In this document: piece by piece, positions 9,936 to 52,984 of the stretch
Numbering within the stretch: the first letter of the stretch is position 1
How the letters are laid out: each line of letters starts with the position of its first letter
From: an uncultured Kiritimatiellota bacterium
GTDB taxonomy: Bacteria; Verrucomicrobiota; Kiritimatiellia; RFP12; DVOR01
Assembly (NCBI GenBank): GCA_944389565.1
Contig: CALXMV010000001.1
Location: forward strand, 51,924 to 115,923
DNA: 64,000 bases
Direction of reading: 5' to 3'
Translations under genes and position numbers: made by a program
Notes under the pieces: model-generated
Database searches by the model: none
The model's input: only the letters and a program-made list of their open reading frames with translations
What the model was told of the DNA's origin: nothing

Positions 9936-10965
9936 CATGAAAAGCGAAGTTCTCTCCCTGCCCGGGGCGATGGCCGCCTCGCCCCTCGCCTGCCTCCTGC
10001 TCGACAAGGCCATCAAGCGCGCCCGCGCCGAGCGCGTCGCCCCCCGCGAGGTCGTCATCTCCGACCAACGCCTCCCCGACGCCCGCCTCCGCAACCGCCT
10101 CATCGCCGAGGCCGCCCTCAACGGTCTCGCCTGCCGCTTCGGCTCCGTGCCCGCCGGCGACACCCCCGACGTCTTCTTCCTTGGCGACCGCCCCCTCTCC
10201 CTCCGCCTCCCCCCCGGCCTGAACGACTGGCACGCCCACACCCAATTCGCCTACTGCGGCCGCGGCATCGACCTGACGGACGCCGCGCGCCTCGCCCTCC
10301 ACCTGGGCGTGGAGACCCAGGGCTTCTCCGAGCACGCCTTCGCCCTCTACTTCCCCTCCGACGCGCTCAAGTTCCGCTGGCAGGGCGACCCAGACGCCGT
10401 GGAGCGCGTCTGGGCCACCCCCGGCCGCGGGCGCATGGCCGCCTACCGCGCCTGGGTGCGCGACCTGCGCCCCCTCCTGGGCCCGCGCGTCCGCTTCGGG
10501 CTGGAGGTGGATCTCTTCGGCGGCGGCCGCTTCTGCCTCGCCCCCGAGGATCTGGAGGGCTGGGACTATCTGATCGGCGCCATCCATGCCGTCGAAGGCC
10601 TTTCCCCCGGCGCCACGCAGGCGCAGGCCGAGGCCGCCTGGATGCGCGACGTCGAGCGCCTCCTCCAACAGCCCATCGCCATCCTCGCCCATCCCCTGCG
10701 TTTCTTCCCGTGGGATGGCCGCCCCACGCCCACCCACCTCTACCGCCCGTTGGCGCGGATGCTTGCCCAGGCGCGCGTCGCCGCCGAGATCAACCACCAC
10801 AAAAACCCCGTCGACCCCGCCTTCTTCCGCATCTGCCTGGAGGAGGGCGTGCGGATCTCCCTTGGCACCGACGCCCACGTCACCCGTTCCGCCGGCGACC
10901 TCCTCCCGCACCTCGAGACCCTCCGTCAGCTCGCCCTCTCCCCCTCCGCCACGCTCCATCCCTAA
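9936..10965 (+). CDS. PHP-domain phosphoesterase (histidinol-phosphatase-like)
   Basis: It contains HAHTQFAYCGRG, GTDAH and other His-rich metal-binding motifs typical of the PHP family. The stop codon lies within a palindromic repeat. Confidence 0.6.
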
Positions 10966-11040
10966 GGGGTTTGCCCCCAAACCCTAAGGGATCCAGCACC
11001 AAACCCTAAGGGGTTCGGGTCGGATCCCTTAAGGGTCAGG
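10958..11040. repeat. Cluster of palindromic repeat units (CCCTAAGGGG / GGGTTTGCCCCCAAACCCTAAGGG / GGATCCCTTAAGGGTCAGG) between convergent genes; likely a bidirectional terminator
   Basis: Seen directly. There are three CCCTAAGGG copies plus one perfect CCCTTAAGGG palindrome, and the GGGTTT-GCCCCC-AAACCC stem-loop motif is shared with the 27.4-kb repeat block. Confidence 0.7.
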
Positions 11041-12265
11041 CTGTTTTCGGGGTCAGAGAGAGGGTGGGGAGGGGGTTGGAGCCGTCGAGGGCGTAGGTGG
11101 TGGCGGTGAGGGTGGTGGGGGTGGCGGCGATGAGGGTGACGGTGGCGGAGGATTCCTTGGGGCCGCCGCCGATGAGGGTGGGGTAGGGGCGGCCGGGAGC
11201 GGGCGGGAGGTGGGAGGCGCGGTGGTCGTGGGCGGCGAGGAGGAGGTCGATTTTGCCCTCGGCGAGGGCGGGGGCGAGGTGTTGGCGGAGGCGGGTGGGG
11301 CCGTGCTTGGCGTCGGAGCGCGGGTCGCCGTTGGTGGGGGGGATGTGGCAGAGGGCGAGGCGTTTCTTGCCGGTCCGCCAAGCGGGGGAACGGACGAGCG
11401 CTTGGGCCCAGGCGCCCTCCTGGGCGATGAGTGCCTCGCATTCCAGGAGGCCGCAGTATTCGCGGTGGGAGTCGACCTTGTCCTCGCCGCTGTCGAGGAT
11501 GAGCAGGCTGAGGGGGCCGAGGTCGAAGGCGGCGTGATAGGCGTCGGTGCCGGCGTAAGGGGCGAAGGCCTCGCGGAGGCGGCGTGCCATGACGCCGCGG
11601 TATTCGTGGTTGCCGCGGGCGAAGAGAAGGGGGATGCCCTGCGCGGTGAGGTCGGCCATGGGGCCGAGGAGGGCTTTGCGGAGGCCCTCGGGGCCGGGCA
11701 CGTTCCCGGCGCAGTCGCCGTTGAGCGCGACGAATGCGGGTTTGGCGGCGGCCACGGCGGGGATGGCGAGGAGTTTGGGGATGAGGGCGGTGTTGGCGTG
11801 GAGGTCGTTGAGCACGGCGAAGGTGAGGGCGCCGTCGGGGCGGATAAGGGCGGGGACGGTGACGATGCCGCCGGCGGATCGCTCGCCGAAACGGGTCCAC
11901 CAAGGATCCATCGTGGTGGCGACGCTTTCGACCTCGAAGCGGAGGGGTTTGGCGAAGTCGACGCCACGGAGGGTGACGAGGTGGTCGGGGCGGTTGGAGG
12001 CGACGAGCCCGTCGACGACGCGGCGGGCGCGGGGCCAGCGGTCGCGCGGGAGGTCGGGGTCTTGGGTCCAGCGGACGGTGCCGGCGCTGGGGGTGGCGGT
12101 GCGCCAGCAGATGGCGAGGGCGTCGCCGCCGACGATCTGGGCCGTGGGGGGCTGGACGAAGGCTGCTTGGTTTTGGGCGGGGGCTTTCTTGGCGGTGGCC
12201 TCGGCGGAGAAGGCGGGGAGGGTGGCGGCGGCGCCGAGGGTGGCGAGGAAGGTGCGGCGGTTCAT
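11036..12265 (-). CDS. Secreted metallophosphoesterase (calcineurin-like / purple acid phosphatase-like) with Tat signal
   Basis: MNRRTFLATLGAAATLPAFS is a twin-arginine signal. GDCAGN, GNHEY and AHDH are metallophosphatase motifs. Confidence 0.7.
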   Translation of the reverse strand: MNRRTFLATLGAAATLPAFSAEATAKKAPAQNQAAFVQPPTAQIVGGDALAICWRTATPSAGTVRWTQDPDLPRDRWPRARRVVDGLVASNRPDHLVTLRGVDFAKPLRFEVESVATTMDPWWTRFGERSAGGIVTVPALIRPDGALTFAVLNDLHANTALIPKLLAIPAVAAAKPAFVALNGDCAGNVPGPEGLRKALLGPMADLTAQGIPLLFARGNHEYRGVMARRLREAFAPYAGTDAYHAAFDLGPLSLLILDSGEDKVDSHREYCGLLECEALIAQEGAWAQALVRSPAWRTGKKRLALCHIPPTNGDPRSDAKHGPTRLRQHLAPALAEGKIDLLLAAHDHRASHLPPAPGRPYPTLIGGGPKESSATVTLIAATPTTLTATTYALDGSNPLPTLSLTPKTA

Positions 12266-27573: not shown

Positions 27574-27582
27574 ATGCGGGAT

Positions 27583-27593
27583 TGTGGTATCAT
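27583..27593 (+). promoter_or_regulatory. Extended -10 promoter element TTGTGGTATCAT placed about 7 nt upstream of the ATG at 27601 (predicts a leaderless mRNA for the giant gene)
   Basis: gggaTTGTGGTATCATgcatggcATGAGACTG is seen directly. The same element occurs in front of nusA, gpmI and the VWA gene. Confidence 0.5.
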
Positions 27594-27600
27594 GCATGGC

Positions 27601-30600
27601 ATGAGACTGTGGCGCACGGGTCGGTTGCTGACGTGGGCGATGGCGTTTGCCGTCGTGGGCGGCGCGCGCGGCGTTGGGTTGGCGCCGGGGGTGTGCCCGA
27701 CGAATCTGACTTGGGCGGTGGAGGCCTATGCGGGGGCGGATTGGGGCGCCTGGGAGGCGCGTGTGGCCGCGGACGCGGAGGGGCTGGCGGCGGTGGCACG
27801 CGAGATCCCACCCACGCCGCCGGGGATGGTGACCTACATCGAGCAAACGGCCGAGGAGTTGCCGGAGGCGTTGGCGGCGTGCACGAACGCGGCGCCAAGC
27901 GTGTTGGTGGGGGGCGTCCGGGCGTGGGATTTCCGGGTGGCGGAGCGGGTGGCCGCGGATGGCGCGCGGGCGTTTCTGACGTTTGCGGGGGAGACGGTCT
28001 TCCATGCGCAGGGGGTGCCGGCCGACTTCGACGCGGAGGCATGGGCGTTGGCGGCCTACACGGAGGATGGGCGCCTGCCGGAGACGGTGGCCGGCGACGC
28101 GGCGCGGCGGGAGGAGTGGTTCGCCATGCGGGGGCGGGAACGGCTGGGCCTGGCGTATACCTTCGTGGAGCGGGGGCGGCTGGAGGATTACGTGGCGGCG
28201 CGCGAGGCGGAGGCCGCGGCGCGTGAGGAGGCCTGGGAGGAGGAGGGCGCGGCGGGGGCGTGGGGCTTCGGGGTGCGGGAGATGGAGGTGGGCGCCGGGG
28301 AGATGGCGTTCGGCTTCTGCGACCCGGCGGGGTCGGATCTGTACGTGTTGGGGCGGAAGAGCCTGGAGGCGTGGGACGATTGGGCGCTCATCGGCAAAGT
28401 CGAGGCGGAGGGGCGGCGATGGGTGGCCTTCGGGTTGCCGATGGACATGCATTTCTGGAAGTTCCTGGATGCCTCGCTGGACAGCGACGGGGACGGCATC
28501 GCGGACGGTCTGGAGGTGGGGTGGTTCGGGACGGACCCCCTGCGGGCGGACACGGCCGGAAGCCTGATCGACGACTGGCGGAAAATCTACGTGTATGGCA
28601 TGGACGCGCGGGTGGCGGACACCGACGGGGACGGTCTGCCGGATGGCTGGGAGCTGCTGAACGGCCTCGACCCTTACGCGGCGGACGCGGAGGGGGACCC
28701 TGACGGGGACGGGATCGCCAACCGTCTGGAATTGGCCTATGGGACCGACCCGCAACGGGCGGATTCGGACGGGGACGGTTTGGGCGACCGTGAGGAGACG
28801 GGGTGGGCGGAGGTGACCCATGGCGTGGGGCCGGTGGCGGCGGGCACGGGGCGTGTCGCGCTCGCGGAGGGCGTGGCGGTGGGCCTGCCCTCCCAAATGC
28901 GTCTGGGCGGCCGCGCCTACGCGCGCGTCGAGGCCTCGCGGTCGGGCGTGGTGCGGCTGCTCGGCGAGTTCCCGATCGCCATCCGGGTCTTCCCGGAGGG
29001 GATGGCGTGGCCGGAGGCGTTCCGCGCGGGAATCTTCGCGTGGGAGGCGGAGGAGGGTTTCGTCATCGCCTTCGAGAACGTCGGTCTGCCGGGGGAGCCC
29101 GCGACGACGCTGGGGCGCGCGCAGGTCATCCTTCGGGCGGATTCCGGGGGCGTGGAGGTGCGCTACACGACCCTGCAGGGTGGCCTCGCCGCGCTCACGG
29201 GGGTCGGCGCGAGGCGGCCGGACGGCCGTTTTGGCGAACTGCTCGACCCCGGCACGGTGACCTTGGGCGATTGCGTGACCTACCGCTTCGGCGCGGGCTC
29301 CGACCCGACGCTCCCGGACACCGACGGCGACGGGGTGGAGGATGGCGCGGAGGTCGCGGCGGGCCGGTCGGCCCCAGGCCCGGACGACGACTTCGACGGT
29401 CTGCCCGATCGGTGGGAGCGGCGCTTCGGCCTTGACCCCCTCTCCGCCTCGGGCGCGGATGGCGCGGCGGGCGACCCCGACGGCGACGGGCTCCCGAACC
29501 TGCGCGAGCACGCCCTGGGCACCGACCCGACCGCCGTGGATTCCGACGGCGACGGGCTGGGCGACGCCGCGGAGGTGGGCGCCGTCACGCGCCGCACGCA
29601 CGTCGCCCCCATGGATACCTCCGCGGGGCGGGTGGTGGCGGTCTATGACAGGGAGGCCACCGCCGGCTATGTGTTTTTCGACCTGCCCTTCCCCGTGCGG
29701 GTGGGCGGGGCGGACTATCCGCGCGTGGGGCTCAACATCGACGGCGTGCTCACGTTCGTGCCAGCCGGCGAGACCGCGGTGCGCTTCCCCTCGGCACGGC
29801 GGGCGTTGGGCGAGACGCCCCTGGACACGCGTTACCCCTCCCTCGCGCTCTACTGGGCGGATCTGATGGTGGCGGAGGCCTTCCGCTCGGAACTGCGCGT
29901 CGTGGAGATGCCGGGCGAGACGGTCGTCGTCGAGTGCCTGAACTTGGCCAAGCAGGGCGGTTTCGCCTTCCTGGCCTGGCCGGAGCCCGCGACCTCTTTG
30001 GCGCGTATCCAGGTCATCATCCCGCGCGACGCGGACGCCGCCGGCATCGAGGTGCGCTACACGACCCTGCAGGGCGGTTTCGACGGCGCTGAGGCCACCC
30101 TCGGGGCGCAGTTCGGCACGCAGGCGATCGACCTGGCGCACAATCTGCTCGGCGCCGTCGCCATCGGCGACGCCATCACCTACCACCCCGGCACCGGCAC
30201 GGATCCCGCACGCGCCGACACCGACGGCGACGGGTTGGGCGACGCCGCCGAGTTGCGGCTGGGCCTCGACCCGAAGAACCCGGACCTGGATGGCGACGGC
30301 TTGGCGGATGGCTGGGAGGTCGCCTGGGGGCTTGACCCGCACGTGCCCGATGACCATGCCGCCGATTGGGACGGCGACGGCATCTCCAATTACGTGGAGG
30401 CCCAGTGGGGCACGAACCCGCGCGCGGCGGATTCCGATGGCGACGGCGTCGGCGACGCGGCCGAGATCGCGCAGGGGAGCGACCCCGCCGACGCCTCGGA
30501 CGGGGGCATGGCGGGGCGTTACGTCAAGGTCGCCCTCACGTTCGGCGACCCCAGCGCGAGCGCCTCCGAGAAATACGCCGTCGAGGTGTGCCAGACCGTG

Positions 30601-32682
30601 GGCGAGGGCAGCGGGGAGGCCGCGCCCAAGCGCCTGGAGAACCTGATCTCCGACGGCGCGGAGACGCGCGAGCTCCTCCTCCGCCCCGACGCGGCCTACA
30701 CGGTGACGCTCCGGCACCTCTCCTCGAAGGCCGCGGAGGCCGACCACGACTACACGCTCACCGTCCGCTGCCCGGTCGTCGCCGCGGGCACGCAGGTCGT
30801 CATCGAGGATCCGGAGTCCCTGCTCGGCACGTATGCCACGGGCGGCTCCGCCACGCCCGACACCTACACGGGCAAGGCCGTCACGCTCTATTGCCTCACG
30901 CCGACCCTGACCCCGGATCATGACCGCGACCTCACGTTCGGCCCCATCGACGAGGCGTACGTCGCGGCGGGCACCCCCCTGCCGGTGTGGGTCAATTCGG
31001 ATCATGACCATGAGGACCCCGAGGGCGTCAACGACGGTTCGGAGGCCTCGCAACCCCTGCCCGACAACTTCATTGAGGGGATCCTTTCAGGCGCCTTCGA
31101 TTGCGACGACCTAACCGTGAACGGGCAGTCCGACCTGGAGGACTTCTTCCCCGTGCGCCTGCGGTTGGGCGCGGCGCTGACGGCTTTCCTGGCGGCACAC
31201 CCGCAGGCCACCGCGCACTTGGAGACCGGCCCATGGGAGGGGGCGCTGCACGCGTTGTGGTGCCATGACGGCACGGAATCCGTCCAACGCTTCTTCGACG
31301 CGTCCGCGGGTGGCGGCCGCTACGGCGAGGAAGGGCGGGAGGCCCGTTGGGAGGCGGAGGTCGCCGAGCTGACGGACGGGCTGTTCGGGGACAGGACGCG
31401 CATCCCCCCGCAGGTGCTCGCCACCGCCCAGGCCTCGGAGCGCGGCGACGTGCCGCTCTTCGTCGAGGCGTGCGCCGAGGGCACGCTGACGCTCCGCCTG
31501 CGCGTGCGGGAGGAGTCGGTGGAGGCGCTGGGCGAGGAGGGGAGGATCCTGACGGAATGCGCCTTCGACAGCCGTTTCGTCGAGGCGTGCTATGCCGTGC
31601 TGAATCTGCGCGAGGACACGCCGCAACGTGTCGACCCCGCCGTCGAACGCGCTGAAAAGCCCGACGTGACCGTCTGCCTCGTGCATGGGTACAACGTCTC
31701 GGAGACCGACGCGGCCGAGTGGTTCAACGCCGTCTACAAGCGCCTCTGGCGCTCCGGCTCGACAGCCCGCTTCTGCGGCGTCGTCTGGCGCGGCGACGAC
31801 CAAGGCGTCATCCTGCCGGATTACTATCGGAACGTCGCGAACGCCTTCGATGCCGCGGGGGCGTTCGCCACGGCGCTGGATGCGATCCCCGGGCGCAAGG
31901 TCGTCCTGGCGCACAGCCTCGGCAATATGCTCGTCTCCGCCGCGCTGCAGGATCACGACGCCCCCATCGACGCCTACTTCATGCTCAATTCCGCCGTCCC
32001 CGCCGAAGCCTACGACCCCGCACCGTCCTCCCCGGGCTTCTCCGTCGCCGGCGTCCCCGCCGGCCTCATCCACGATGCGTGGCGCAACTATGACCCCAGG
32101 AGTTGGTCCGCGCTCTGGCATCGGCATTTCCTCCCGCATGAGGGCTTCGCGCCGACCGCCGCCGACGCCGCCCGCGCCACCCTCACCTGGAAGGGCCGCT
32201 TCGAGGACGTGCTCACCGGCCGGGGCGCGAAGGTCTTCCACGTCTACTCGCGCGGCGCGGGCGAGACGAGCGGCGACGAGGTCTTCGAGCTCCTGGGCAC
32301 GACCCCCTCCCCGCTGAGCGGTTTCGACTGGACCGACCTCAAGACCAAAGGCCGTCACGCGTGGCAGAAGCAGGAATGCTGGAAAGGCCGCCGCGAGGCA
32401 AGCGCCCTCGCCCTCGCGGCCTCCGAGGAGATGGGATGGGGCTTCGATGGTGCCGCCGCCGACGTCTCCGCGGAAGCCTCCGCCTCGTTGGGCGAGGCCG
32501 CCTACCGCCAAGCACCCCTCTTCTGCCGCCAGCCCCCCGAAATCCTCGGCGACGACCCCAACGCCATCCTCGACCTCCGCAACACCCTCCTCGCCCGCGC
32601 CATCCCCGCACTCTCCAACGCCGCCGGAAAAACGGATCTTCCAGGCCTTGCTGAGGGCGATCAATTCGACTGTCAAACCTAG
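27601..32682 (+). CDS. Giant secreted Ca-binding protein with multiple thrombospondin type-3-like (DxDxDGxxDxxE) repeats, two ~280-aa repeated modules, and a C-terminal alpha/beta-hydrolase (lipase/esterase-like) domain
   Basis: It has the signal peptide MRLWRTGRLLTWAMAFAVVGGARG. TSP3-like repeats include DTDGDGLPDGWE, DPDGDGIANRLE and DSDGDGLGD. The module ...IQVI(L/I)...GIEVRYTTLQGG occurs twice. The C-terminus has VCLVHGY (oxyanion HG) and VVLAHSLGNML (GxSxG nucleophile elbow). The start could alternatively be 27592 or 27574. Confidence 0.75.
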   Translation: MRLWRTGRLLTWAMAFAVVGGARGVGLAPGVCPTNLTWAVEAYAGADWGAWEARVAADAEGLAAVAREIPPTPPGMVTYIEQTAEELPEALAACTNAAPSVLVGGVRAWDFRVAERVAADGARAFLTFAGETVFHAQGVPADFDAEAWALAAYTEDGRLPETVAGDAARREEWFAMRGRERLGLAYTFVERGRLEDYVAAREAEAAAREEAWEEEGAAGAWGFGVREMEVGAGEMAFGFCDPAGSDLYVLGRKSLEAWDDWALIGKVEAEGRRWVAFGLPMDMHFWKFLDASLDSDGDGIADGLEVGWFGTDPLRADTAGSLIDDWRKIYVYGMDARVADTDGDGLPDGWELLNGLDPYAADAEGDPDGDGIANRLELAYGTDPQRADSDGDGLGDREETGWAEVTHGVGPVAAGTGRVALAEGVAVGLPSQMRLGGRAYARVEASRSGVVRLLGEFPIAIRVFPEGMAWPEAFRAGIFAWEAEEGFVIAFENVGLPGEPATTLGRAQVILRADSGGVEVRYTTLQGGLAALTGVGARRPDGRFGELLDPGTVTLGDCVTYRFGAGSDPTLPDTDGDGVEDGAEVAAGRSAPGPDDDFDGLPDRWERRFGLDPLSASGADGAAGDPDGDGLPNLREHALGTDPTAVDSDGDGLGDAAEVGAVTRRTHVAPMDTSAGRVVAVYDREATAGYVFFDLPFPVRVGGADYPRVGLNIDGVLTFVPAGETAVRFPSARRALGETPLDTRYPSLALYWADLMVAEAFRSELRVVEMPGETVVVECLNLAKQGGFAFLAWPEPATSLARIQVIIPRDADAAGIEVRYTTLQGGFDGAEATLGAQFGTQAIDLAHNLLGAVAIGDAITYHPGTGTDPARADTDGDGLGDAAELRLGLDPKNPDLDGDGLADGWEVAWGLDPHVPDDHAADWDGDGISNYVEAQWGTNPRAADSDGDGVGDAAEIAQGSDPADASDGGMAGRYVKVALTFGDPSASASEKYAVEVCQTVGEGSGEAAPKRLENLISDGAETRELLLRPDAAYTVTLRHLSSKAAEADHDYTLTVRCPVVAAGTQVVIEDPESLLGTYATGGSATPDTYTGKAVTLYCLTPTLTPDHDRDLTFGPIDEAYVAAGTPLPVWVNSDHDHEDPEGVNDGSEASQPLPDNFIEGILSGAFDCDDLTVNGQSDLEDFFPVRLRLGAALTAFLAAHPQATAHLETGPWEGALHALWCHDGTESVQRFFDASAGGGRYGEEGREARWEAEVAELTDGLFGDRTRIPPQVLATAQASERGDVPLFVEACAEGTLTLRLRVREESVEALGEEGRILTECAFDSRFVEACYAVLNLREDTPQRVDPAVERAEKPDVTVCLVHGYNVSETDAAEWFNAVYKRLWRSGSTARFCGVVWRGDDQGVILPDYYRNVANAFDAAGAFATALDAIPGRKVVLAHSLGNMLVSAALQDHDAPIDAYFMLNSAVPAEAYDPAPSSPGFSVAGVPAGLIHDAWRNYDPRSWSALWHRHFLPHEGFAPTAADAARATLTWKGRFEDVLTGRGAKVFHVYSRGAGETSGDEVFELLGTTPSPLSGFDWTDLKTKGRHAWQKQECWKGRREASALALAASEEMGWGFDGAAADVSAEASASLGEAAYRQAPLFCRQPPEILGDDPNAILDLRNTLLARAIPALSNAAGKTDLPGLAEGDQFDCQT

Positions 32683-32822
32683 ATTGTGAATGATGCGAAG
32701 CGTCCGTGGGTTCAGCGTTCAGGAGAGTTGAAAGAGCGATGGCTACATTCAGATGTGAAGGATGTGGCTTATCCATTAACGCTCCCACTTTTTCAGTTCA
32801 TGATTCAGAAAGGAAAGTTGAA

Positions 32823-33941
32823 ATGAGAATGTTTGTGGCTTGCCTCTCGCTGTCGGTAGCCGTGGTACTTTACGCGGAGACGCCTTATGAGCGTAATGAA
32901 CGTTATCAAGGTGCGCAGGCAACCCTTCAATTGACCGTTCGGGATGACCGAGGGGAGCCCGTTGAGGATGCTCGTGTGGAGGCTTCTTTTTGGAACCCGT
33001 TTCAGAATCCGACACGTGTGCAAATTGGCCATACCGATGATGCCGGGACAGTCTCTTTTACGGGAGAGGGTTACTCGGACACGCATTATTATGTTGGAAA
33101 AGATGGATATTATGGAAGTCGCGGAAGGGCGGTGCTCGAAAAACCTGACAAGGACCCCGAGCATTTTTGGGAACGGCTCAGGTGGGAGCCGGTGATTCGT
33201 GACATTACGCTCAAGAAAAAGCGGAATCCCATCGAAGGATTCTTGCATATAGGCATCGAACTCAAAACACCGGCGCTCAATCGTCCCGTGTGGTTTGACC
33301 TTGAGGCCTTCGATTGGTTGCCTCCTTATGGCGAGGGGGTTCACCGTGATGTCGCCATAACCTTGCAGACCGCACGCGTGCAAATAAGGGGGTATGAAGC
33401 CGACAGAATCGCCAAGGCGTGTTTTGCTTTTCCCAATCCGCATGATGGCGCACAGCGTTGCGATGCGGATATCCAATCCTATCACGAAGTGGGATATCAT
33501 GTGAATACGGCCAAGCCATTCGTCAACCCCATGATTCTTGAGGCAGATTTTACGAGAAGTCACGACAAATTTCTTCCTTACACAAGCTATCTGACATTTC
33601 GTGTCAGAAGCAAATGCGATGAGAATGGGAACCTCGTCTCCGCACAGTATGGCTTCATGTATCGCTTTTCGGTTACGGAGGAATGCTTCACAGCCTCTCT
33701 GCTTTTCCTCAATCCCACGCCGAATGACACGAACATCGAATACGATCTCAAGCGGAGCCTGGCGAAATCGGATGCCGATCGCAAGTGGGAGGCTAGGCAG
33801 AAATGTCTTGAGAAACGGTTTGAGGAGGAGCGGAAAATGCTGGAGGAGATGGGTGTGGAGAACTTCATCAGGGCGATACGGGCGAAACGGAGCGGCGCTT
33901 CCGGCACGCCCAAGCAGGAAGCGAAGGGAGCGGCGGAATGA
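32823..33941 (+). CDS. Secreted paralog 1 of a three-member tandem family (signal peptide, N-terminal transthyretin/CarbopepD_reg-like beta-sandwich, variable middle, conserved charged C-terminal tail)
   Basis: It starts MRMFVACLSLSVAVVLYA/ETPY and carries an aaaggaaag RBS. It is low in GC (about 50-55%). The N-terminal ~150 aa are identical to paralog 3 and the C-terminal ~70 aa are shared by all three. Confidence 0.7.
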   Translation: MRMFVACLSLSVAVVLYAETPYERNERYQGAQATLQLTVRDDRGEPVEDARVEASFWNPFQNPTRVQIGHTDDAGTVSFTGEGYSDTHYYVGKDGYYGSRGRAVLEKPDKDPEHFWERLRWEPVIRDITLKKKRNPIEGFLHIGIELKTPALNRPVWFDLEAFDWLPPYGEGVHRDVAITLQTARVQIRGYEADRIAKACFAFPNPHDGAQRCDADIQSYHEVGYHVNTAKPFVNPMILEADFTRSHDKFLPYTSYLTFRVRSKCDENGNLVSAQYGFMYRFSVTEECFTASLLFLNPTPNDTNIEYDLKRSLAKSDADRKWEARQKCLEKRFEEERKMLEEMGVENFIRAIRAKRSGASGTPKQEAKGAAE

Positions 33942-35035
33942 GAACGTTTGTGGCTTGCCTCTCGCTGTCGGTGGCCGTTTCCCTTTACGCGGAGACGCCT
34001 TATGAGCGTAATGAACGTTATCAAGGTGCGCAGGCAACCCTCCAGCTGACGGTGCGTGACGACCGAGGGGTGCCAGTGGAAGGGGCCTATGTGCAAGCGC
34101 ATTTTTGGCAGCCGACCTCGGATGCGGCCGCTGTAGGCGCATACACCGACGAAAAAGGGTACGCGAACGTCGTGGGTAATGGGTATACAGATGTCCGATA
34201 TTCTGTGAGCAAAGATGGGTATTACAGGACTCGCGGGAGTGCGCGATTGTCGCTTCCCGAAAATGATCCAACGCCTTTTTGGAAAGATTATCAGTGGGCA
34301 CCCATCATAAGAGAAACCGTGATTAGGAAAGTCCGCCGCCCGGTCTCTGGGGTGCTTCATCTTGGCGAATGGCTGTCGCCTCCCCAGACAGATGTGCCTA
34401 TCGGGTTGGATTTGCAACTTATGGATTGGATGCCGCCCCACGGTCGGGGAAGCCATTGTGATGTCGTGGTCAAGTTTGTGACGCGGACACTGCGTGACAA
34501 TGGGCACGCATGGGAGGTTGTCGATTCAATCGCATTGGAGTTCCCTAATGAGCACGATGGTGTTTTGCTTTGTGATGCGGCACCCTATTCGGCATTCATC
34601 ACTCCCTATCATGTTCCTGAGAACGGAGATTTCGTGGCGTGTTACAGACTGACAGCATCGGAGAAGGAGGGAACCTTTTTTCTGCCAGATACGCAAACAC
34701 TCCTTTTCCGGATTCGGAGCAAAGAGGGTGCAGGCGGTGCAATCGTCTCTGCTCATTATGGCTCAATTTTTCGTTGTGTCATGACGGGTGGAATGGTTTC
34801 CATGGATGTTTTCCTCAATCCCACGCCGAATGACACGAACATCGAATACGACCCCAAGCGGAGTCTGGCGAAGTCGTATGCCGACCGCAGGTGGGAGGCC
34901 ACGCAGAAGCGTCTTGAGGAGGAGCGGAAAATGCTTGAGGAGATGGGCGTGGAGAACTTCATCAGGGCGGTGCGGGCGAAACGGAGCGGCGCTTCCGGCA
35001 CGCCCAAGCAGGAAGCGAAGGGAGCGGCGCAATGA
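33938..35035 (+). CDS. Secreted paralog 2 of the tandem family (divergent after residue ~45, conserved C-terminal tail)
   Basis: It starts MRTFVACLSLSVAVSLYAETPYERNERYQGAQATLQLTVRDDRG and ends ...FLNPTPNDTNIEYDPKRSLAKSYADRRWEATQKRLEEERKMLEEMGVENFIRAVRAKRSGASGTPKQEAKGAAQ. Its start has an ATGA overlap with paralog 1. Confidence 0.7.
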   Translation: MRTFVACLSLSVAVSLYAETPYERNERYQGAQATLQLTVRDDRGVPVEGAYVQAHFWQPTSDAAAVGAYTDEKGYANVVGNGYTDVRYSVSKDGYYRTRGSARLSLPENDPTPFWKDYQWAPIIRETVIRKVRRPVSGVLHLGEWLSPPQTDVPIGLDLQLMDWMPPHGRGSHCDVVVKFVTRTLRDNGHAWEVVDSIALEFPNEHDGVLLCDAAPYSAFITPYHVPENGDFVACYRLTASEKEGTFFLPDTQTLLFRIRSKEGAGGAIVSAHYGSIFRCVMTGGMVSMDVFLNPTPNDTNIEYDPKRSLAKSYADRRWEATQKRLEEERKMLEEMGVENFIRAVRAKRSGASGTPKQEAKGAAQ

Positions 35036-36138
35036 GAACGTTTGTGGCTTGCCTCTCGCTGTCGGTAGCAGTGTCCCTTTACGCGGAGACGCCTTATGAG
35101 CGTAATGAACGCTATCAAGGCGCGCAGGCGACCCTGCAATTGACCGTTCGGGATGACCGAGGGGAGCCCGTTGAGGATGCTCGTGTGGAGGCTTCTTTTT
35201 GGAACCCGTTTCAGAATCCGACACGTGTGCAAATTGGCCATACCGATGATGCCGGGACAGTCTCTTTTACGGGAGAGGGTTACTCGGACACGCATTATTA
35301 TGTTGGAAAAGATGGATATTATGGAAGTCGCGGAAGGGCGGTGCTCGAAAAACCTGACAAGGACCCCGTGCATTTTTGGGAACGGCTCAGGTGGGAGCCG
35401 GTAATCCGTGATGTCACGCTCAAAAAAATACGACACCCAATATCAGGGTTTTTGCATCACAATATTCCACTCACACCTCCTTGTCTCAATCAACCAATAG
35501 GATTGGATTTTGAGCGTTGGGACTGGTTGCCGCCTTATGGGATGGGGAAGCATGAAGATGTCAAAATCACGTTCGAGGCACAACGCGTCGTCCAACCCAA
35601 CTTTTCTAAAGACTTGGTTATTGCCATCCATTTCGCGTTTCCCAATCCAAATGATGGTATGCAAATCTGCCCTGCGGATACTTTTTCAACTTTCGTTCCC
35701 ACTTATCACGTTGATGCCCAAAAACCATTTATGAATACTGTTTCTTTTTATCGGCAAAAACCTTCAGAACAATATCAGTTTCTGGCTCACACCTCTTATC
35801 TGGCTTTTCGGGTTCGTAGTCAGAAAGGTGATGCGGGGATGTTCGTGGCGCATTATGGATTTATATATCAACTTCTTGATATCTCAGATCAAGAGTTTTG
35901 CCCGACTATTGTCTTTTTCAATCCCACGCCGAATGACACGAACATCGAATACGACCCCAAGCGGAGTCTGGCGAAGTCGTATGCCGACCGCAGGTGGGAG
36001 GCCACGCAGAAGCGTCTTGAGGAGGAGCGGAAAATGCTGGAGGAGATCGGCGTGGAGAACTTCATCAGGGCGATACGGGCGAAACGGAGCGGCGCTTCCG
36101 GCACGCCCAAGCAGGAAGCGAAGGGAGCGGCGGAATGA
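35032..36138 (+). CDS. Secreted paralog 3 of the tandem family (N-terminus identical to paralog 1, unique very low-GC middle, conserved C-terminal tail)
   Basis: It has ATGA overlaps with paralog 2 upstream and with the small protein downstream. The middle region is about 43-48% GC. Confidence 0.7.
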   Translation: MRTFVACLSLSVAVSLYAETPYERNERYQGAQATLQLTVRDDRGEPVEDARVEASFWNPFQNPTRVQIGHTDDAGTVSFTGEGYSDTHYYVGKDGYYGSRGRAVLEKPDKDPVHFWERLRWEPVIRDVTLKKIRHPISGFLHHNIPLTPPCLNQPIGLDFERWDWLPPYGMGKHEDVKITFEAQRVVQPNFSKDLVIAIHFAFPNPNDGMQICPADTFSTFVPTYHVDAQKPFMNTVSFYRQKPSEQYQFLAHTSYLAFRVRSQKGDAGMFVAHYGFIYQLLDISDQEFCPTIVFFNPTPNDTNIEYDPKRSLAKSYADRRWEATQKRLEEERKMLEEIGVENFIRAIRAKRSGASGTPKQEAKGAAE

Positions 36139-36650
36139 GGGCGATGTTGGTTTTTGCCATGATGTTGGGGGTGGCGTGGTGCGCGTGGGGCGGGCTCGTG
36201 CCACGATTGCTGATCTTGGAGGCGGCGAGCGTGAAGGGGCAGGACCCGACGGCCCCGTGGACCGTTTACGGGACGTACCCGGCGGGGACGGTGGTGACGG
36301 GGAGCAAGCATTGCGAGGGGGCGGAGGGGACGGTCTGGAAGTTCGGCGTGTATGACTATCTGGGGATCACGCAGAACGTGACCTTCGCGTTGCGCTTCAA
36401 GGGGATGGATTGGACGGGGGAGGTGGGGAGCGCCAAGGTGGAGGGGATCTTCCGCCCGTACACGGACGGGGCCGTGACGTGCACGCTCGCGACGGTCTAT
36501 CAGGTGCGGGACGCCTTCTCGGCGCCCGACCGCGCGCCGACCTCCTATCCCGACGCGGCGATCCTGGAATGGAAGTTCCTCATTTTCTGGGAATGGGAGG
36601 GCGAGCCCGATGGCTCGTCGGGCGCGCTTTCGCCGGTTTCCGAAAAATAG
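36135..36650 (+). CDS. Small secreted protein of unknown function, high GC, translationally coupled to the paralog array
   Basis: It starts MRAMLVFAMMLGVAWCAWGG (signal peptide) and is 171 aa. Its ATGA overlaps the stop codon of paralog 3. Confidence 0.55.
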   Translation: MRAMLVFAMMLGVAWCAWGGLVPRLLILEAASVKGQDPTAPWTVYGTYPAGTVVTGSKHCEGAEGTVWKFGVYDYLGITQNVTFALRFKGMDWTGEVGSAKVEGIFRPYTDGAVTCTLATVYQVRDAFSAPDRAPTSYPDAAILEWKFLIFWEWEGEPDGSSGALSPVSEK

Positions 36651-41438: not shown

Positions 41439-42981
41439 GACGCGTCCGCCGCGGGAGGCTGCCCTGCCCCTGCTCCTGGTCGCCCTGCCGCTGGCCGTGG
41501 CCGTGGCCCGCACGCCGGCGCTCGTGGGGATGGTCTGCGCGGCCGCGTTGCTCCTGGCCTTCCGGGCGGGGTGCCTCAGGGCCTTCGCGGCGATTGTGGC
41601 GGGGGGCTTCCTGCTCAATCTGCTCGTCCCCTCCGGTTTCGCGATCTACAGCGACGCGGACAATTACCTGATCCCGAACATCCGTCTGCTGGCCGCGGGC
41701 GGGGCGTTGGCGATGGATGGCGCGGTCTCGGCCGCGCATTTCACCCTGCCGCAGGGGTTCGTGGGGTGGGGCGCGGCGCTCTATCGGCTCACGGGCTGGG
41801 TGGACGCGGGGAACTGCCTGGTCTTCCTGCTGCTGCCTGCCACGTGGCTGACCCTGCGCCGGACGCTGACGCGTGCGCAGACGGCGCTGCTGGCCGTGGG
41901 GCCGCTCACGTTCGTGAGCCTCTTCTGCGCCCTGCCGGATGGGTGCGTCTACCTGCTGCTCCTCACCGCCCTCTTCGCCCACCGCGCGGGGGACTTCCGC
42001 CTGTCGGTGGTGGCGCTGGTGGTGGCCTGCACGTTCAAGACGACCGCGTGGCTGCCGGCCGCGTTCGTCGGGTTGCTGTTGCTGCGCGATTGGCCGCGGC
42101 GGTGGGGGTGGCTGGCACTGGCCGCGGCGGTGACGGGGGCGATCGTCTTCCCGACGTTGCGGGCGTTGGCGGGCGGCTCGCTCTCCGCCATCTCCGCGGA
42201 TTTCCTGGGGATGGACGCCGCCGCCCGCGAGATGGGCTACTGGCCGCGCCTGGCCTATGCCTATCTGGGCCATTGGCTCGTGCCCGGCGACCCGCGCTTC
42301 AACGTCGCGACGGGGGGCATCGACGGCGGGGGCGTGGACGGGCTCGGACCGGTCTTCCGCCTGGCCGTTTGGGCGTCGCTGGCCGTGTTGACGCTCTGCC
42401 GGCGGCGGTTGACGGGGTGGGGGGGCACGTTGCTCGCGGCGTGGGGGAGCGTGCTGGCGATGCCCACGCTCTACATCGGTTACGCCCGCTATGCGCCCCT
42501 GCTCTACGTGGCGGTGATGCTGCCCTTGGTCCTGACGGTGCGCCGGACGGCCGTGCTCGTGGCGGTGCTGGTCTGCGCCATGCCGGCGGCGTGGGTGGGC
42601 TGGCGCCTGATGCTCGCCTCCGAGAACCTCACCGCGCAACGGCACGCCGAGGCCGTCCGGAGCGACCTCTACAACGTCCGTTGCGCCTTCCGCGGCCGGC
42701 TCGTGGCGGAGCCGCAGCCCACGCTCGCGGGCAACCTGTCCTACACCTATCGCGGCACGGACTTCCCGCCCATGCCGCGCACGCTGGCCGTCGACAACCG
42801 GCTGACCCCCGCCTCCGACAAGGCGCGCGGCATGGCGGCCTACGCCTTGGGCACGTGGCTGCCCTGGGCCTGCCGCCACCTGCCCACGCTCGCCGCGGAC
42901 TGGGCCGCCTATCGCTTTGACACGTTCATGACCTTTCCGCGAGGAACGCATGATGGACTTCCGCCCCCTGCACGCCAATGA
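41419..42981 (+). CDS. Polytopic membrane protein, possible GT-C-fold glycosyltransferase-like
   Basis: It has multiple predicted TM helices, an acidic motif in the first loop (YSDADNYLIP) and a periplasmic C-terminal domain. The family was not recognised with confidence. Confidence 0.4.
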   Translation: MADTSAETRPPREAALPLLLVALPLAVAVARTPALVGMVCAAALLLAFRAGCLRAFAAIVAGGFLLNLLVPSGFAIYSDADNYLIPNIRLLAAGGALAMDGAVSAAHFTLPQGFVGWGAALYRLTGWVDAGNCLVFLLLPATWLTLRRTLTRAQTALLAVGPLTFVSLFCALPDGCVYLLLLTALFAHRAGDFRLSVVALVVACTFKTTAWLPAAFVGLLLLRDWPRRWGWLALAAAVTGAIVFPTLRALAGGSLSAISADFLGMDAAAREMGYWPRLAYAYLGHWLVPGDPRFNVATGGIDGGGVDGLGPVFRLAVWASLAVLTLCRRRLTGWGGTLLAAWGSVLAMPTLYIGYARYAPLLYVAVMLPLVLTVRRTAVLVAVLVCAMPAAWVGWRLMLASENLTAQRHAEAVRSDLYNVRCAFRGRLVAEPQPTLAGNLSYTYRGTDFPPMPRTLAVDNRLTPASDKARGMAAYALGTWLPWACRHLPTLAADWAAYRFDTFMTFPRGTHDGLPPPARQ

Positions 42982-44383
42982 GTTGCCCGCGCTCCGCCCG
43001 TACGTCGCGCGCAACCCCTTTCATCTCAGCGACAATTCCCTGGGCTTCCTGCTCATGTGGCGCCCCTACGCCCACACCGCGATGGCCGAGGCCGAGGGGT
43101 GCCTCATCGTCCGCACCTCCTATGGCGGCAAACTGCGCTTCGCCTATCCCATCCATCCCGAGGCCGACCAGGAGGCCGAGCTGCGCGCGCTCACGGCGGT
43201 CGAGGCCTGGTGCGTCGCCGAGGGGGTGCCCCTGGGGCTCTGCTCCGTGCCGATCGAGCGCCTCCCCCTCCTCACGCGCCGCTACGGCCGCGACATGACC
43301 ATCACCAATCCCCGCACCTGGCGCGACTACCTCTACAACCTCTCCGACTTCGAGGCCTACGCCGGGCGCCGTTTCGCCGGCCAGCGCAACCACGTCTCCA
43401 AGTTCCGCCGGGCCTACCCCGACGCCGCCTACCGCGCCATGACCCCCGGCGACCTCCCCGCCATCCGCGACTTCCTGCGCGCGTACGCCGAGCGCCAATA
43501 CGCCAAGAACTCCTTCCTGGCCAAGGAGGAACTCCACGGCACCGAGACGCTCCTGAGCATGTTCGAGCCCCTCCGCCTCGAAGGCGGCCTCATCGAGCAC
43601 CAGGGCAGGATCATCGCCATCACCGTCGGCGAGCCCATCGGCGACACCCTCATGGTGCACGTCGAGAAGGCGCTCGTCGGCTACGACGGCGTCTATCCCA
43701 CCATCGCCCAGGCCTTCGCCGCCGCCATCCGCCCCGCCCACCCCGAATTGCTCTACGTCAACCGCGAGGACGACGCCGGCGACTGCGGCCTGCGCAAATC
43801 CAAACTCCAATACAACCCCATCCGCCTCCTCGACAAATACACCGTCCTGCCCCGGCGCGTCATCGAGGAGCTCGACGCCCCGCCCACCATCGACACCGAG
43901 CGCCTGCGCCTGCGCCCCGTCCCAGACGCCGACGTCCACGTCTACGCCCGCCTCGCCCGCGACCTCGCGCGCAACCGCTTCTGGGGGTGGGACTGGCGCA
44001 CCGCCTGGGAGGGCGAGGGCGACCCGCGCGACGCCTGGTTCCTCGAACTGCCGCGCAACGACTTCAAGGCCCGCCGCGAGGTCGCCCTCGGCATCTATGC
44101 CGCGGACGCGCTCGTCGGCGAATGCGTCTTCCACAACTTCACCTACGACAACACCGTCGAGCTCGGCGTCCGCCTCCTGCCCGAGGCCGAGCACAACGGC
44201 TACGCCGCCGAGGCCATGCGCGCCATGGCCGCCCACGCCCTGTGCTACTGGGGGCTGGAGAAGGCCGTCGCCAAGTGCTACCGCGACAACCTCCCCTCCC
44301 GCCGGATGCTCCTGGCCTCCGGCCTCCGCGACGACCACGAGGACGACACCTTCTTCTACTTCTCCCGCACCGCCAAAAACTGA
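42950..44383 (+). CDS. Fusion of a DUF2156 (aminoacyl-phosphatidylglycerol-synthase-like) domain and a C-terminal GNAT acetyltransferase
   Basis: The N-terminus (HLSDNSLGFLLMWRPYAHTAMAEAEGCLIVRT...) resembles the DUF2156 / MprF C-terminal domain pattern. The C-terminus (ERLRLRPV...FHNFTYDNTVELGVRLLPEAEHNGYAAEAMRAM) is RimJ/RimL-like GNAT. Confidence 0.5.
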   Translation: MMDFRPLHANELPALRPYVARNPFHLSDNSLGFLLMWRPYAHTAMAEAEGCLIVRTSYGGKLRFAYPIHPEADQEAELRALTAVEAWCVAEGVPLGLCSVPIERLPLLTRRYGRDMTITNPRTWRDYLYNLSDFEAYAGRRFAGQRNHVSKFRRAYPDAAYRAMTPGDLPAIRDFLRAYAERQYAKNSFLAKEELHGTETLLSMFEPLRLEGGLIEHQGRIIAITVGEPIGDTLMVHVEKALVGYDGVYPTIAQAFAAAIRPAHPELLYVNREDDAGDCGLRKSKLQYNPIRLLDKYTVLPRRVIEELDAPPTIDTERLRLRPVPDADVHVYARLARDLARNRFWGWDWRTAWEGEGDPRDAWFLELPRNDFKARREVALGIYAADALVGECVFHNFTYDNTVELGVRLLPEAEHNGYAAEAMRAMAAHALCYWGLEKAVAKCYRDNLPSRRMLLASGLRDDHEDDTFFYFSRTAKN

Positions 44384-51453: not shown

Positions 51454-52984
51454 CGCGGAGCGCGAGGCCCAGGGCCTCCGCCGGTGGGCCATGGCCGCGG
51501 TGGCGCTCACCGTGGCGTGTTATCTGGCCAACATCCTTCTCGGCCCGCTCAATCAGGACGAGGGCTGGTACCTTTACGCCGCGCGGCGCCTGATGGCCGG
51601 CGACATCCCCCATCGCGACTTCTTCTTCACCCAGGGGCTGGTCATGCCCGCCGTCTACGCGCTCCTCGGTTGGCTCTGGTCGCCCTTCGGCGTCTTGGGC
51701 GGACGTGTCGTCACGGCGATCCTCGGCCTCACGGCGATCTTCCTGGCGGACGGCGCGCTCGTCTCCTGCTTCCGCCGCGACGACGAACGCTGGACGGCGC
51801 GTGTGGCGCTGTGGGCGTTCGTGGGGCTCTCCCTCTGGTACACCTACTTCACCGCCATCCCCAAAGCCTATGCCCTCTGCGCCCTCGGTCTGGCCGGCGG
51901 TCTGCGCCTGCTCACCTGCCTGCGCACGGAGGGCGAGACGGACGCGACGTGCGGGATCGACCCGCTCTGCGCGGCGGCTGCGGGGTTCCTCTTCGCGCTC
52001 TTGGCGGACGTCCGCCTCTCGATGGGCGTGCTGCTGCCCGTGGTGGCGCTGTGGCTGCTGTGGCGGCGGGCTTGGGCCGGGGCTTGGACGTGGCTTTGGT
52101 TCGGCCTGGGCGGCGGGGTGGGGGCGCTTCTCGCCTTCGGCCCGGAACTCCTCCTTTGGCCGCAGGCGTTTTTCGAGACGCAGGCCTTCCATGCCGCGCG
52201 TGCGCCGATGGGGCCGCTGGGCGTGGCGGGGTGCGTCGCGCGTTTCCTGCGCCACAACGCGCTGCTGGCCTTTGTCGGGGCGCTGGCGGCGTGGGTGTGG
52301 TGGGCGCGCCGCCCCGCGCCCAAACGCCCGCCCGCGGATCGGGCGGGTTTCCTGGGGCTGTGGCTCTGCGTCGGGCTCGCGCTCGCGGCGGCGCATCTCC
52401 TCGCGCCCGTCCCTTACGACGACTATCTCGTGCCGGCCCTTCTGCCGCTGGGCATGGCGGGGGCCTTCGCCTTCGCGCTCCTCCCCTTCGAGTCGATGCG
52501 CCAGGCGCTCGCGCGCGCGTTGCTGCTCGCCGCGGCGGCGGTCACCGTGGCGGGGTCGCCCATCGCCGAGGGGTGGTTCTCGCTCGGGCAGGACCGTTTT
52601 TGGGTGAATCTCAAGGAGGAGCCGGATCTGATGCGTCTGCGCCGCGCCGCGGCGATCGCGCGGGACGCCGCACTCCGCCTCGGCACGGACACGATCTGGA
52701 CGCAGGACACCTACCTCGCCGTCGAGGCGGGGCTGGAGGTCCCGCGGGGGCTGGAGATGGGGCCCTTCTCCAAGCCCGTGCCGTTTGACACTTCCGCGGC
52801 CCCGCTCGCCGCCTGGTCCGGCTACACCCATGCCCTGCGCTTCCCCGACCTCACCCCCGCGCCCGACAGGGAATCCCGCCTCGCGGGGTTGCGCGCCGCC
52901 TATCCCCGCGTCCTCGCCGTCATCCCCCGTTTCGGCCAACAGCACACCACGCTCGTCATCGCCGAGAGGAGCCGTGCCCCATGA
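51443..52984 (+). CDS. GT-C-fold glycosyltransferase (ArnT/PMT family, GT39/GT83-like)
   Basis: GPLNQDEGWYLYAARRLMAGDIP carries the first-loop DE(x)xY-type acidic motif after TM1, with about 12 TM helices. The gene overlaps both neighbours. Confidence 0.55.
   Translation: MPRDAEREAQGLRRWAMAAVALTVACYLANILLGPLNQDEGWYLYAARRLMAGDIPHRDFFFTQGLVMPAVYALLGWLWSPFGVLGGRVVTAILGLTAIFLADGALVSCFRRDDERWTARVALWAFVGLSLWYTYFTAIPKAYALCALGLAGGLRLLTCLRTEGETDATCGIDPLCAAAAGFLFALLADVRLSMGVLLPVVALWLLWRRAWAGAWTWLWFGLGGGVGALLAFGPELLLWPQAFFETQAFHAARAPMGPLGVAGCVARFLRHNALLAFVGALAAWVWWARRPAPKRPPADRAGFLGLWLCVGLALAAAHLLAPVPYDDYLVPALLPLGMAGAFAFALLPFESMRQALARALLLAAAAVTVAGSPIAEGWFSLGQDRFWVNLKEEPDLMRLRRAAAIARDAALRLGTDTIWTQDTYLAVEAGLEVPRGLEMGPFSKPVPFDTSAAPLAAWSGYTHALRFPDLTPAPDRESRLAGLRAAYPRVLAVIPRFGQQHTTLVIAERSRAP

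Follow-up and report, generated by a model that had tools for sequence, protein, structure and literature searches.

A putative polymorphic lipase-like toxin with an exchangeable, histidine-bearing tail and exported immunity-like partners, interrupted by an in-frame stop in an uncultured Kiritimatiellota bacterium

A 64,000-nt stretch of DNA from an uncultured Kiritimatiellota bacterium (GCA_944389565.1, contig CALXMV010000001.1, positions 51,924–115,923, forward strand; hereafter the window) contains a giant gene whose product begins with a Sec signal, continues through TSP3 repeats and ends in an α/β-hydrolase domain, and which is followed directly by three tandem genes for exported proteins. 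From comparative sequence evidence, we consider it probable that this locus encodes a polymorphic lipase-like toxin with its exported cognate immunity proteins, and that the toxin copy in the window has been inactivated by an in-frame TAG.

The α/β-hydrolase fold of the C-terminal domain is secure. An AlphaFold model of P0001, a homologue 54% identical to the window domain and used as its stand-in, has confidence scores (pLDDT) mostly above 90 over the domain and shows the canonical order of elements (strand β3 followed by the HG dipeptide, β5 by the serine, β7 by the acid, and the histidine before the last helix), with two large insertions at residues 268–339 and 360–484. Foldseek comparison of this model with the PDB returned almost exclusively α/β-hydrolases, with lipases on top (best E 5e-5) and with phospholipase PlaB, a P. 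aeruginosa lipase and the A. baumannii LipA:LipB lipase–foldase complex among the matches. Residue and family counts given below out of 48 refer to a 48-sequence alignment of the hydrolase family in which the open reading frame (ORF) from the window is one row; Pfam Abhydrolase_6 matches 29 of these relatives and DUF900 matches 25, the latter over the N-terminal half only. The window protein itself has only sub-threshold matches within the clan, of which Abhydrolase_1 comes closest (24.5 bits against a cut-off of 25.8), followed by the weaker Hydrolase_4, Ser_hydrolase and DUF900 (13.3 bits, cut-off 20.5), and the NCBIfam search of this protein gave no match over the hydrolase domain. Calling the domain lipase-like is reasonable but weak: when the family profile was compared with solved sequences, pancreatic-lipase relatives were the best matches, at E 0.004. 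The original prediction of a C-terminal α/β-hydrolase thus stands at superfamily level; its lipase/esterase-like label draws support from the Foldseek ranking and the pancreatic-lipase matches, although the Pfam matches on the window protein are weak, and its narrower assignment to PGAP1/LCAT-like esterases is not supported, as PGAP1 matches one of the 48 relatives (E 6e-4) and the window protein not at all. Matches to vitronectin and to an acyl transferase, which came from a single-sequence search against solved structures, were rejected as spurious. A collection of 5.8 billion proteins yielded 104 homologues of the domain, those with a name belonging to metagenome-assembled genomes (MAGs) of Kiritimatiellae or Opitutaceae.

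The peptides from which the domain had been recognized, an HG dipeptide followed about 70 residues later by a GxSxG pentapeptide, are both present, all three sequence stretches quoted for the domain lying in the ORF, with the nucleophile S1448 (codon at 31915–31917) 77 residues downstream of HG; the pentapeptide, however, is AHSLG, with alanine in 48 of 48 sequences. Neither motif is a chance match, because AHSLG is found in every row and HG in 46–47 of them. The AxSxG variant of the elbow is known from Bacillus lipase A. Similarly, the lipase effector Tle3 accepts G, S, C or A at the first position of the pentapeptide (PMC9860674). The predicted catalytic residues are S1448, H1725 and an acid that is probably D1568 or, alternatively, E1478, and the G[D/E]EV column at the canonical position of the acid is acidic in 48 of 48 relatives. 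Across the alignment, the only row without the histidine of the RWLHSD motif is the ORF from the window, and this histidine becomes invariant once the read-through sequence is used. Failure to find a plausible triad had been named beforehand as the result that would overturn the hydrolase call: serine, Asp/Glu and histidine proved to be conserved family-wide, with the histidine lying outside the ORF as called.

The domain had been taken to end at nt 32682, implying a complete enzyme. Nucleotides 32680–32682 are instead an in-frame TAG, beyond which the domain runs on in frame to 32823, so that the ORF as called contains the serine and the candidate acids and leaves the histidine on the far side of the stop. 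The TAG lies 22 codons before the catalytic histidine and 18 codons into a segment that varies between strains. All homologues reach about 50 residues past the end of the window ORF, the RWLHSD motif being near-invariant there, and the post-stop stretch in the window aligns with the family residue for residue, keeps every conserved residue and terminates at a TGA (32824–32826) that overlaps the ATG of the next gene (32823) in an ATGA junction. Opposite the TAG, the sister strains L084 and L085 have TCA (Ser) and L086 has TTT (Phe), and the homologues P0001 and P0004 have Tyr; because the sister strains have sense codons at this position, the stop is specific to the window allele. Nothing supports recoding, because the 64-kb window contains no tRNA gene and no Rfam element. 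Among about 35 confident genes in the window, about 30 end in TGA and about two in TAG. If the TAG is neither an error nor read through, translation ends ahead of H1725 and the window copy is predicted to lack catalytic activity, whereas the three immunity-like genes downstream remain intact.

Right about the superfamily, the original prediction was incomplete: besides the stop, it was silent on two features of the locus, a swapped low-GC tail and an array of partner genes. The sister strains, which are separate assemblies in the ENA and were reached by a search with the first downstream protein, match the window at 97–98% nucleotide identity over the flanks, have the same gene order and belong to the same species; the giant genes of L084 and L086 are intact (1743 and 1739 amino acids). 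The giant proteins of the three strains are 98–100% identical over about 1690 residues and drop to 43–58% directly after AIPALSNAAG; in a second comparison, identity is 0.99 in the body and 0.39–0.52 in the tail, and the DNA of these strains is identical through GCCGCCGGAA.AAC and diverges after it. In the window, GC content at third codon positions (GC3), read in the frame of the gene, falls from 0.8–1.0 to about 0.5 at nt ~32620–32630, still within the gene and some 55 nt ahead of the TAG. The same break recurs in four independent lineages: close pairs have body identities of 0.88–0.99 and tail identities of 0.39–0.63, with the changepoint directly after GIPAL(S/T)xAAG and a hypervariable loop of about 25–30 residues following it. 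Identity of the first partner gene tracks that of the tail, not that of the body. GC content is lower than in the body in 81 of 82 tails and in 77 of 82 first partner genes, and because this drop is family-wide, a single recent horizontal transfer into the window genome was judged insufficient by itself as an explanation.

The three downstream genes are paralogues with mutual identities of 55–71%, and their resemblance is unevenly spread: genes 1 and 3 are 95% identical over their first 300 nt, the last 244 nt are 94% identical between genes 2 and 3, and the remaining copy stands at 62–69% each time. The middles of the partner genes differ, and the array is mosaic between strains, with L084 and L086 carrying rearranged combinations. 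Mosaic arrays with near-identical ends and differing middles suggest frequent recombination between the conserved ends of the partner genes. The three proteins start with signal peptides, and none of them matches a Pfam family above threshold. In the partner model (pLDDT 88), a signal helix is followed by a sandwich resembling transthyretin and CarboxypepD_reg and then by another beta-rich domain, and the chain closes with a helix; as modelled, the fold is new and resembles that of no solved immunity protein. At E ≤ 1e-30 the partner profile finds 1,859 cluster representatives (50% identity), nearly all of them 310–345 amino acids long, which makes this a large family; a signal-like N-terminus is present in 97 of 107 partners and a lipobox-like motif in about 14.

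Pairing of the two families extends well beyond this species. A scan of one genome per species gave 411 hydrolase relatives, and 80 loci were analysed, nearly all from MAGs of Kiritimatiellia, Lentisphaeria or Verrucomicrobiota, some of these genomes having more than one copy. In a scoring with hidden Markov models (HMMs) of the hydrolase and partner families, a partner gene directly follows 78 of the 80 hydrolase genes that have room for one behind them (a single one in 58 cases, two in 11 and three in nine). The hydrolase proteins range from forms of about 380–390 amino acids, consisting of signal peptide and enzyme, up to giants of 2600. In addition, there are 18 N-terminally truncated hydrolase fragments, 11 of which are stand-alone C-terminal pieces, every one with a partner gene behind it (e.g., in L004 and L006); three further fragments are pieces of frameshifted main genes. 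Modules of an orphan fragment with its partner occur in loci L004, L006, L012, L025, L028, L038, L047, L065 and L076. The window contains three partner genes and no orphan hydrolase fragment.

It is the combination of a constant body, a boundary motif, a variable C-terminus, an exported neighbour, partner arrays, orphan modules and foreign composition that makes us favour a toxin–immunity locus. A constant body with a variable C-terminus, orphan modules and multi-copy partners is the signature of such loci, polymorphic toxins with α/β-hydrolase heads have been described (PMC3482391), and next to the genes of Tle lipase effectors lie genes for immunity proteins that are periplasmic or lipoproteins (PMC9860674). 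What we infer from this pattern is toxicity and immunity, along with the substrate and the route of export. The Sec-exported, TSP3-repeat giant would carry the serine-hydrolase domain as its toxin end, and the last ~65 residues, comprising the hypervariable loop and the histidine-bearing end, would be exchanged as a low-GC cassette together with the one to three downstream genes, GIPAL(S/T)xAAG serving as the recombination boundary and the body staying constant within a species. The hydrolase would attack an ester substrate in the envelope of competitors, most likely a membrane phospholipid, and the exported partner would block it in the periplasm of the producer, with extra partner paralogues guarding against the variants of neighbours. 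Only tentatively would we extend this to a toxin system that depends on Sec and not on a type VI secretion system (T6SS), with specificity generated by tail exchange, a new immunity family, and stops and frameshifts as by-product or off-switch; such a system would be widespread across Kiritimatiellia, Lentisphaeria and Verrucomicrobiota, and the lesions in the hypervariable loop (those of the window and of locus L020) could be either by-products of cassette exchange or a means of switching the toxin off.

Several observations weigh against an inactivated toxin with cognate immunity. No delivery machinery was recognized in the 64-kb window, where Pfam was run on a subset of the neighbours and these were housekeeping genes. 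In classical polymorphic toxins the toxin domain varies as a whole, but here variation is confined to its tail, and tail and partner could co-vary simply because they are physically linked. Lastly, an error of sequencing or of assembly could have produced the TAG, and the hydrolase gene of L020 is frameshifted in the same loop, just after IPALSGAVG (L020 ~10900–11141), which could mean either consensus errors of MAGs at strain-variable junctions or imprecise recombination.

If the TAG is not meaningful, being either such an error or read through, the full, active enzyme of 1750 residues would be made. This we regard as unlikely but worth taking seriously, because the 47 codons after the stop are undecayed, keep the conserved residues and end exactly at the ATGA junction, TAG is rare as a stop in this window, the site falls where strains differ and consensus errors are likelier, and L020 has its frameshift in the same loop. 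However, a recent nonsense mutation would equally have left the following codons undecayed, the sequence as given reads TAG, the window has neither a tRNA gene nor an Rfam element, and the high-GC gene just after the partner array (36135–36650) seems to end normally at a TAG. Nor was an independent assembly of the exact allele found: two exact patterns, one across the TAG and one over the conserved motif, had no match in JGI metagenomes, and exact look-ups of the giant protein, of the first partner and of P0105 returned no record. An artefactual TAG would in any case touch the claim of inactivation alone and is compatible with the toxin–immunity reading. Separately, the hydrolase genes of L006 (~10730–11030) and L073 (~10640–10810) are split by frameshifts further upstream, and these broken genes, like that of L020, may be pseudogenes or MAG consensus errors.

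A different reading of the pair is that the hydrolase is a secreted or surface-tethered lipase or esterase for nutrient acquisition, with the partner as a folding, escort or anchoring helper and not as an immunity protein. Strict pairing in 78 of 80 cases would fit an obligate helper as well, both proteins have Sec signals, Kiritimatiellia are polymer degraders, and lipase-specific foldases are encoded next to family I lipases, the LipA:LipB complex and the P. aeruginosa lipase being among the Foldseek matches. We nevertheless judge a helper role to be distinctly improbable, since it does not explain why a single enzyme gene should be followed by two or three divergent paralogues, nor does it account for the orphan modules of tail plus partner or the abrupt, strain-specific replacement of a cassette of foreign GC content. 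In addition, Lif foldases are helical, membrane-anchored steric chaperones, whereas the partner is all-beta.

Diversification of an exposed tail and its partners to escape predators, phages or the antibodies of a host, the hydrolase activity being incidental, would account for a hypervariable loop of about 25–30 residues straight after a conserved motif and for the adhesin-like TSP3 architecture with its partial NCBIfam matches to CglD and MtsD. It is, however, very unlikely: the catalytic residues are strictly conserved, even in the forms of ~390 amino acids that consist of signal peptide and enzyme, and orphan modules of tail and partner together with multi-copy partners are the mark of toxin–immunity loci (PMC3482391). 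That the GC break and the stop stem from a chimeric assembly of two organisms, as the sharp change in GC3 at nt ~32620–32630 might suggest, is essentially refuted, because the reading frame and the family alignment continue unbroken through the change in composition, GC content is high again from 36135 on, where the flanking genes are those of L084 and L086, these independent assemblies share the layout while carrying different low-GC cassettes of their own, and the drop in GC recurs in tails and first partner genes throughout the family.

Among known systems, the polymorphic toxin–immunity reading finds its closest parallels in the CdiA-CT, Rhs-CT and Tox-ABhydrolase-1/2/3 toxins (PMC3482391), which share with this family a large exported protein whose central part carries repeats, a boundary motif that separates a constant body from a variable C-terminus, an immunity gene as the next one downstream, orphan modules of C-terminal fragment and immunity gene (here in relatives of the window locus), and replacement of the cassette between strains. 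They differ in that whole domains of varied folds are exchanged there, whereas here the last ~65 residues within one conserved enzyme vary; in that the repeats here are TSP3 and not RHS or filamentous haemagglutinin; and in that the hydrolase family also includes minimal forms of signal peptide and enzyme. Those parts of the 2012 survey by Zhang et al. that were searched (PMC3482391) contain neither the PVC-group (Planctomycetes–Verrucomicrobia–Chlamydiae) distribution nor the partner family. Literature searches on DUF900 effectors and on toxins of Kiritimatiellae brought up nothing relevant. The Tle1-4/Tli pairs of the T6SS likewise combine an α/β-hydrolase, a Ser-His-Asp triad and an xHSxG-type elbow with immunity genes that directly follow the effector (PMC9860674), as the exported partner follows the hydrolase here; this is an analogy only. 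In contrast to those systems, the scanned part of the window showed no T6SS genes, VgrG, Hcp or PAAR, the giant protein has a Sec signal and TSP3 repeats, the family matches Abhydrolase_6 and in part DUF900 and none of the Tle families in Pfam (DUF2235, DUF3274 and others), and the predicted fold of the partner is unlike that of any solved immunity protein. Judged from the sequences, the TSP3 repeats, the new fold of the partner and the exchange of only the histidine-bearing tail thus set the present locus apart from these known systems.

As regards the enzyme, the best structural and profile neighbours are RavL (7x2p), Lip_vut1 (6nkc), a Streptomyces lipase (5h6g) and the pancreatic-lipase family. 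These lipases, the minimal ones included, share the xHSLG elbow, the HG dipeptide and the spacing from β3 to β5, but identity is 12–16%, E-values are marginal (0.004 at best), the two insertions of P0001 have no counterpart, and the scores barely exceed those of other α/β-hydrolases. For DUF900 (PF05990), an α/β-hydrolase family of unknown function that is described as alpha-proteobacterial (PMC11878206), the match that P0001 makes at 24.3 bits, above the cut-off, covers only positions 23–115 of the 232 in the profile, i.e., from β3 to the nucleophile.

The part of the giant protein upstream of the hydrolase had been described as roughly 1,350 residues of calcium-binding repeats. Repeats are indeed present, with nine TSP3_bac matches (Pfam, E 2e-38) and 12 DxDxDG motifs, but because the motifs are confined to three clusters (residues 303–397, 582–656 and 882–953), only part of this region is calcium-binding repeat. 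The modules between the clusters are of a non-repeat type and yet internally repeated, with self-matches of 65–70% among segments of the giant gene. The N-terminus is signal-like and hydrophobic. The gene as a whole is internally repetitive: nt ~28616–28788 resemble ~29381–29565, and 29094–29574 resemble 29982–30465 (65–70%, in cross-matches with L084 and L086), which fits three copies of a unit made of one TSP3 cluster and one module. The partial NCBIfam matches lead, via the TSP3 repeats, to the Myxococcus surface proteins CglD and MtsD. A minus-strand ORF opposite the hydrolase domain (31111–32676, 521 amino acids) lacks the GC3 signature of coding and was rejected as a high-GC artefact; long antisense ORFs of this sort are numerous across the window. 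Coordinates of all features are collected in Table 1.

Table 1. Features of the hydrolase–partner locus, in window coordinates (aa, amino acids; x/48, rows of the family alignment).
Feature	Position (nt)	Strand	Remarks
Giant ORF as read	27574..32682	+	1702 codons; ends at in-frame TAG
TSP3-repeat region	28480..30465	+	Three clusters of four DxDxDG (TSP3_bac) motifs
α/β-hydrolase core	31657..32823	+	From EKPDVTVCLVHG to true C-terminus ...QKGKLK, reading through the TAG
Oxyanion-hole HG, H1371-G1372 (predicted)	31684..31689	+	After strand β3; H 46/48, G 47/48
Nucleophile elbow A-H-S1448-L-G (predicted)	31909..31923	+	Invariant, 48/48; after β5 in P0001 model
E1478, alternative candidate for triad acid	32005..32007	+	Glu 48/48; after strand β6
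D1568 in SGDEV, canonical position of triad acid (predicted)	32275..32277	+	After β7; D 36/48, E 12/48
IPALSNAAG motif, boundary of constant body and variable tail	32602..32628	+	Changepoint at HMM columns 409-416, four independent lineages
Low-GC cassette: hydrolase tail and three partner genes	32630..36138	+	~50% GC vs ~70% elsewhere in window
In-frame TAG, codon 1703	32680..32682	+	Inside hypervariable loop
Post-stop continuation, 47 codons (IVNDAKRPWVQRSGELKERWLHSDVKDVAYPLTLPLFQFMIQKGKLK), and true stop	32683..32826	+	Same frame; matches family C-terminus
H1725 of RWLHSD, predicted catalytic histidine	32746..32748	+	Beyond TAG; H 47/48
Partner gene 1	32823..33941	+	372 aa; signal peptide, transthyretin-like beta-sandwich, second beta-rich domain, helical tail
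Partner gene 2	33938..35035	+	365 aa; 55% identical to gene 1
Partner gene 3	35032..36138	+	368 aa; 71% identical to gene 1
Gene for 171-aa exported protein, high GC	36135..36650	+	Signal-like N-terminus; start overlaps end of last partner gene

The 171-residue protein encoded after the array matches no Pfam family. In L001/L002, L004, L005 and L072 a homologue (32–38% identity) is encoded immediately behind the partner array, in L006 one lies ahead of the hydrolase, and in this clade the protein may belong to the system as an additional component. Elsewhere in the window, an ORF of 1324 amino acids (52981–56955) joins an apolipoprotein N-acyltransferase (LNT_N and CN_hydrolase) with a long region resembling TPR/YfiO, which is unusual for Lnt. 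In another ORF (42950–44383), a GNAT acetyltransferase domain accompanies LPG_synthase_C, a C-terminal domain found in phosphatidylglycerol lysyltransferase, and the product may be a membrane-lipid-modifying enzyme.

For annotation, the giant gene should be flagged as interrupted, and an activity assay on the recombinant domain as originally delimited would probably give a false negative because the called product has no catalytic histidine. Bacteria of the PVC group are abundant in guts, rumens and sediments and are mostly uncultured, and to our knowledge they generally lack well-studied delivery systems. If the toxin–immunity reading is true, the locus would give a first handle on how members of this group compete, would add a large and so far unannotated pair of enzyme and partner families, and would present an unusual way of making specificity, in which only the tail that bears the catalytic histidine is exchanged on an otherwise constant enzyme.

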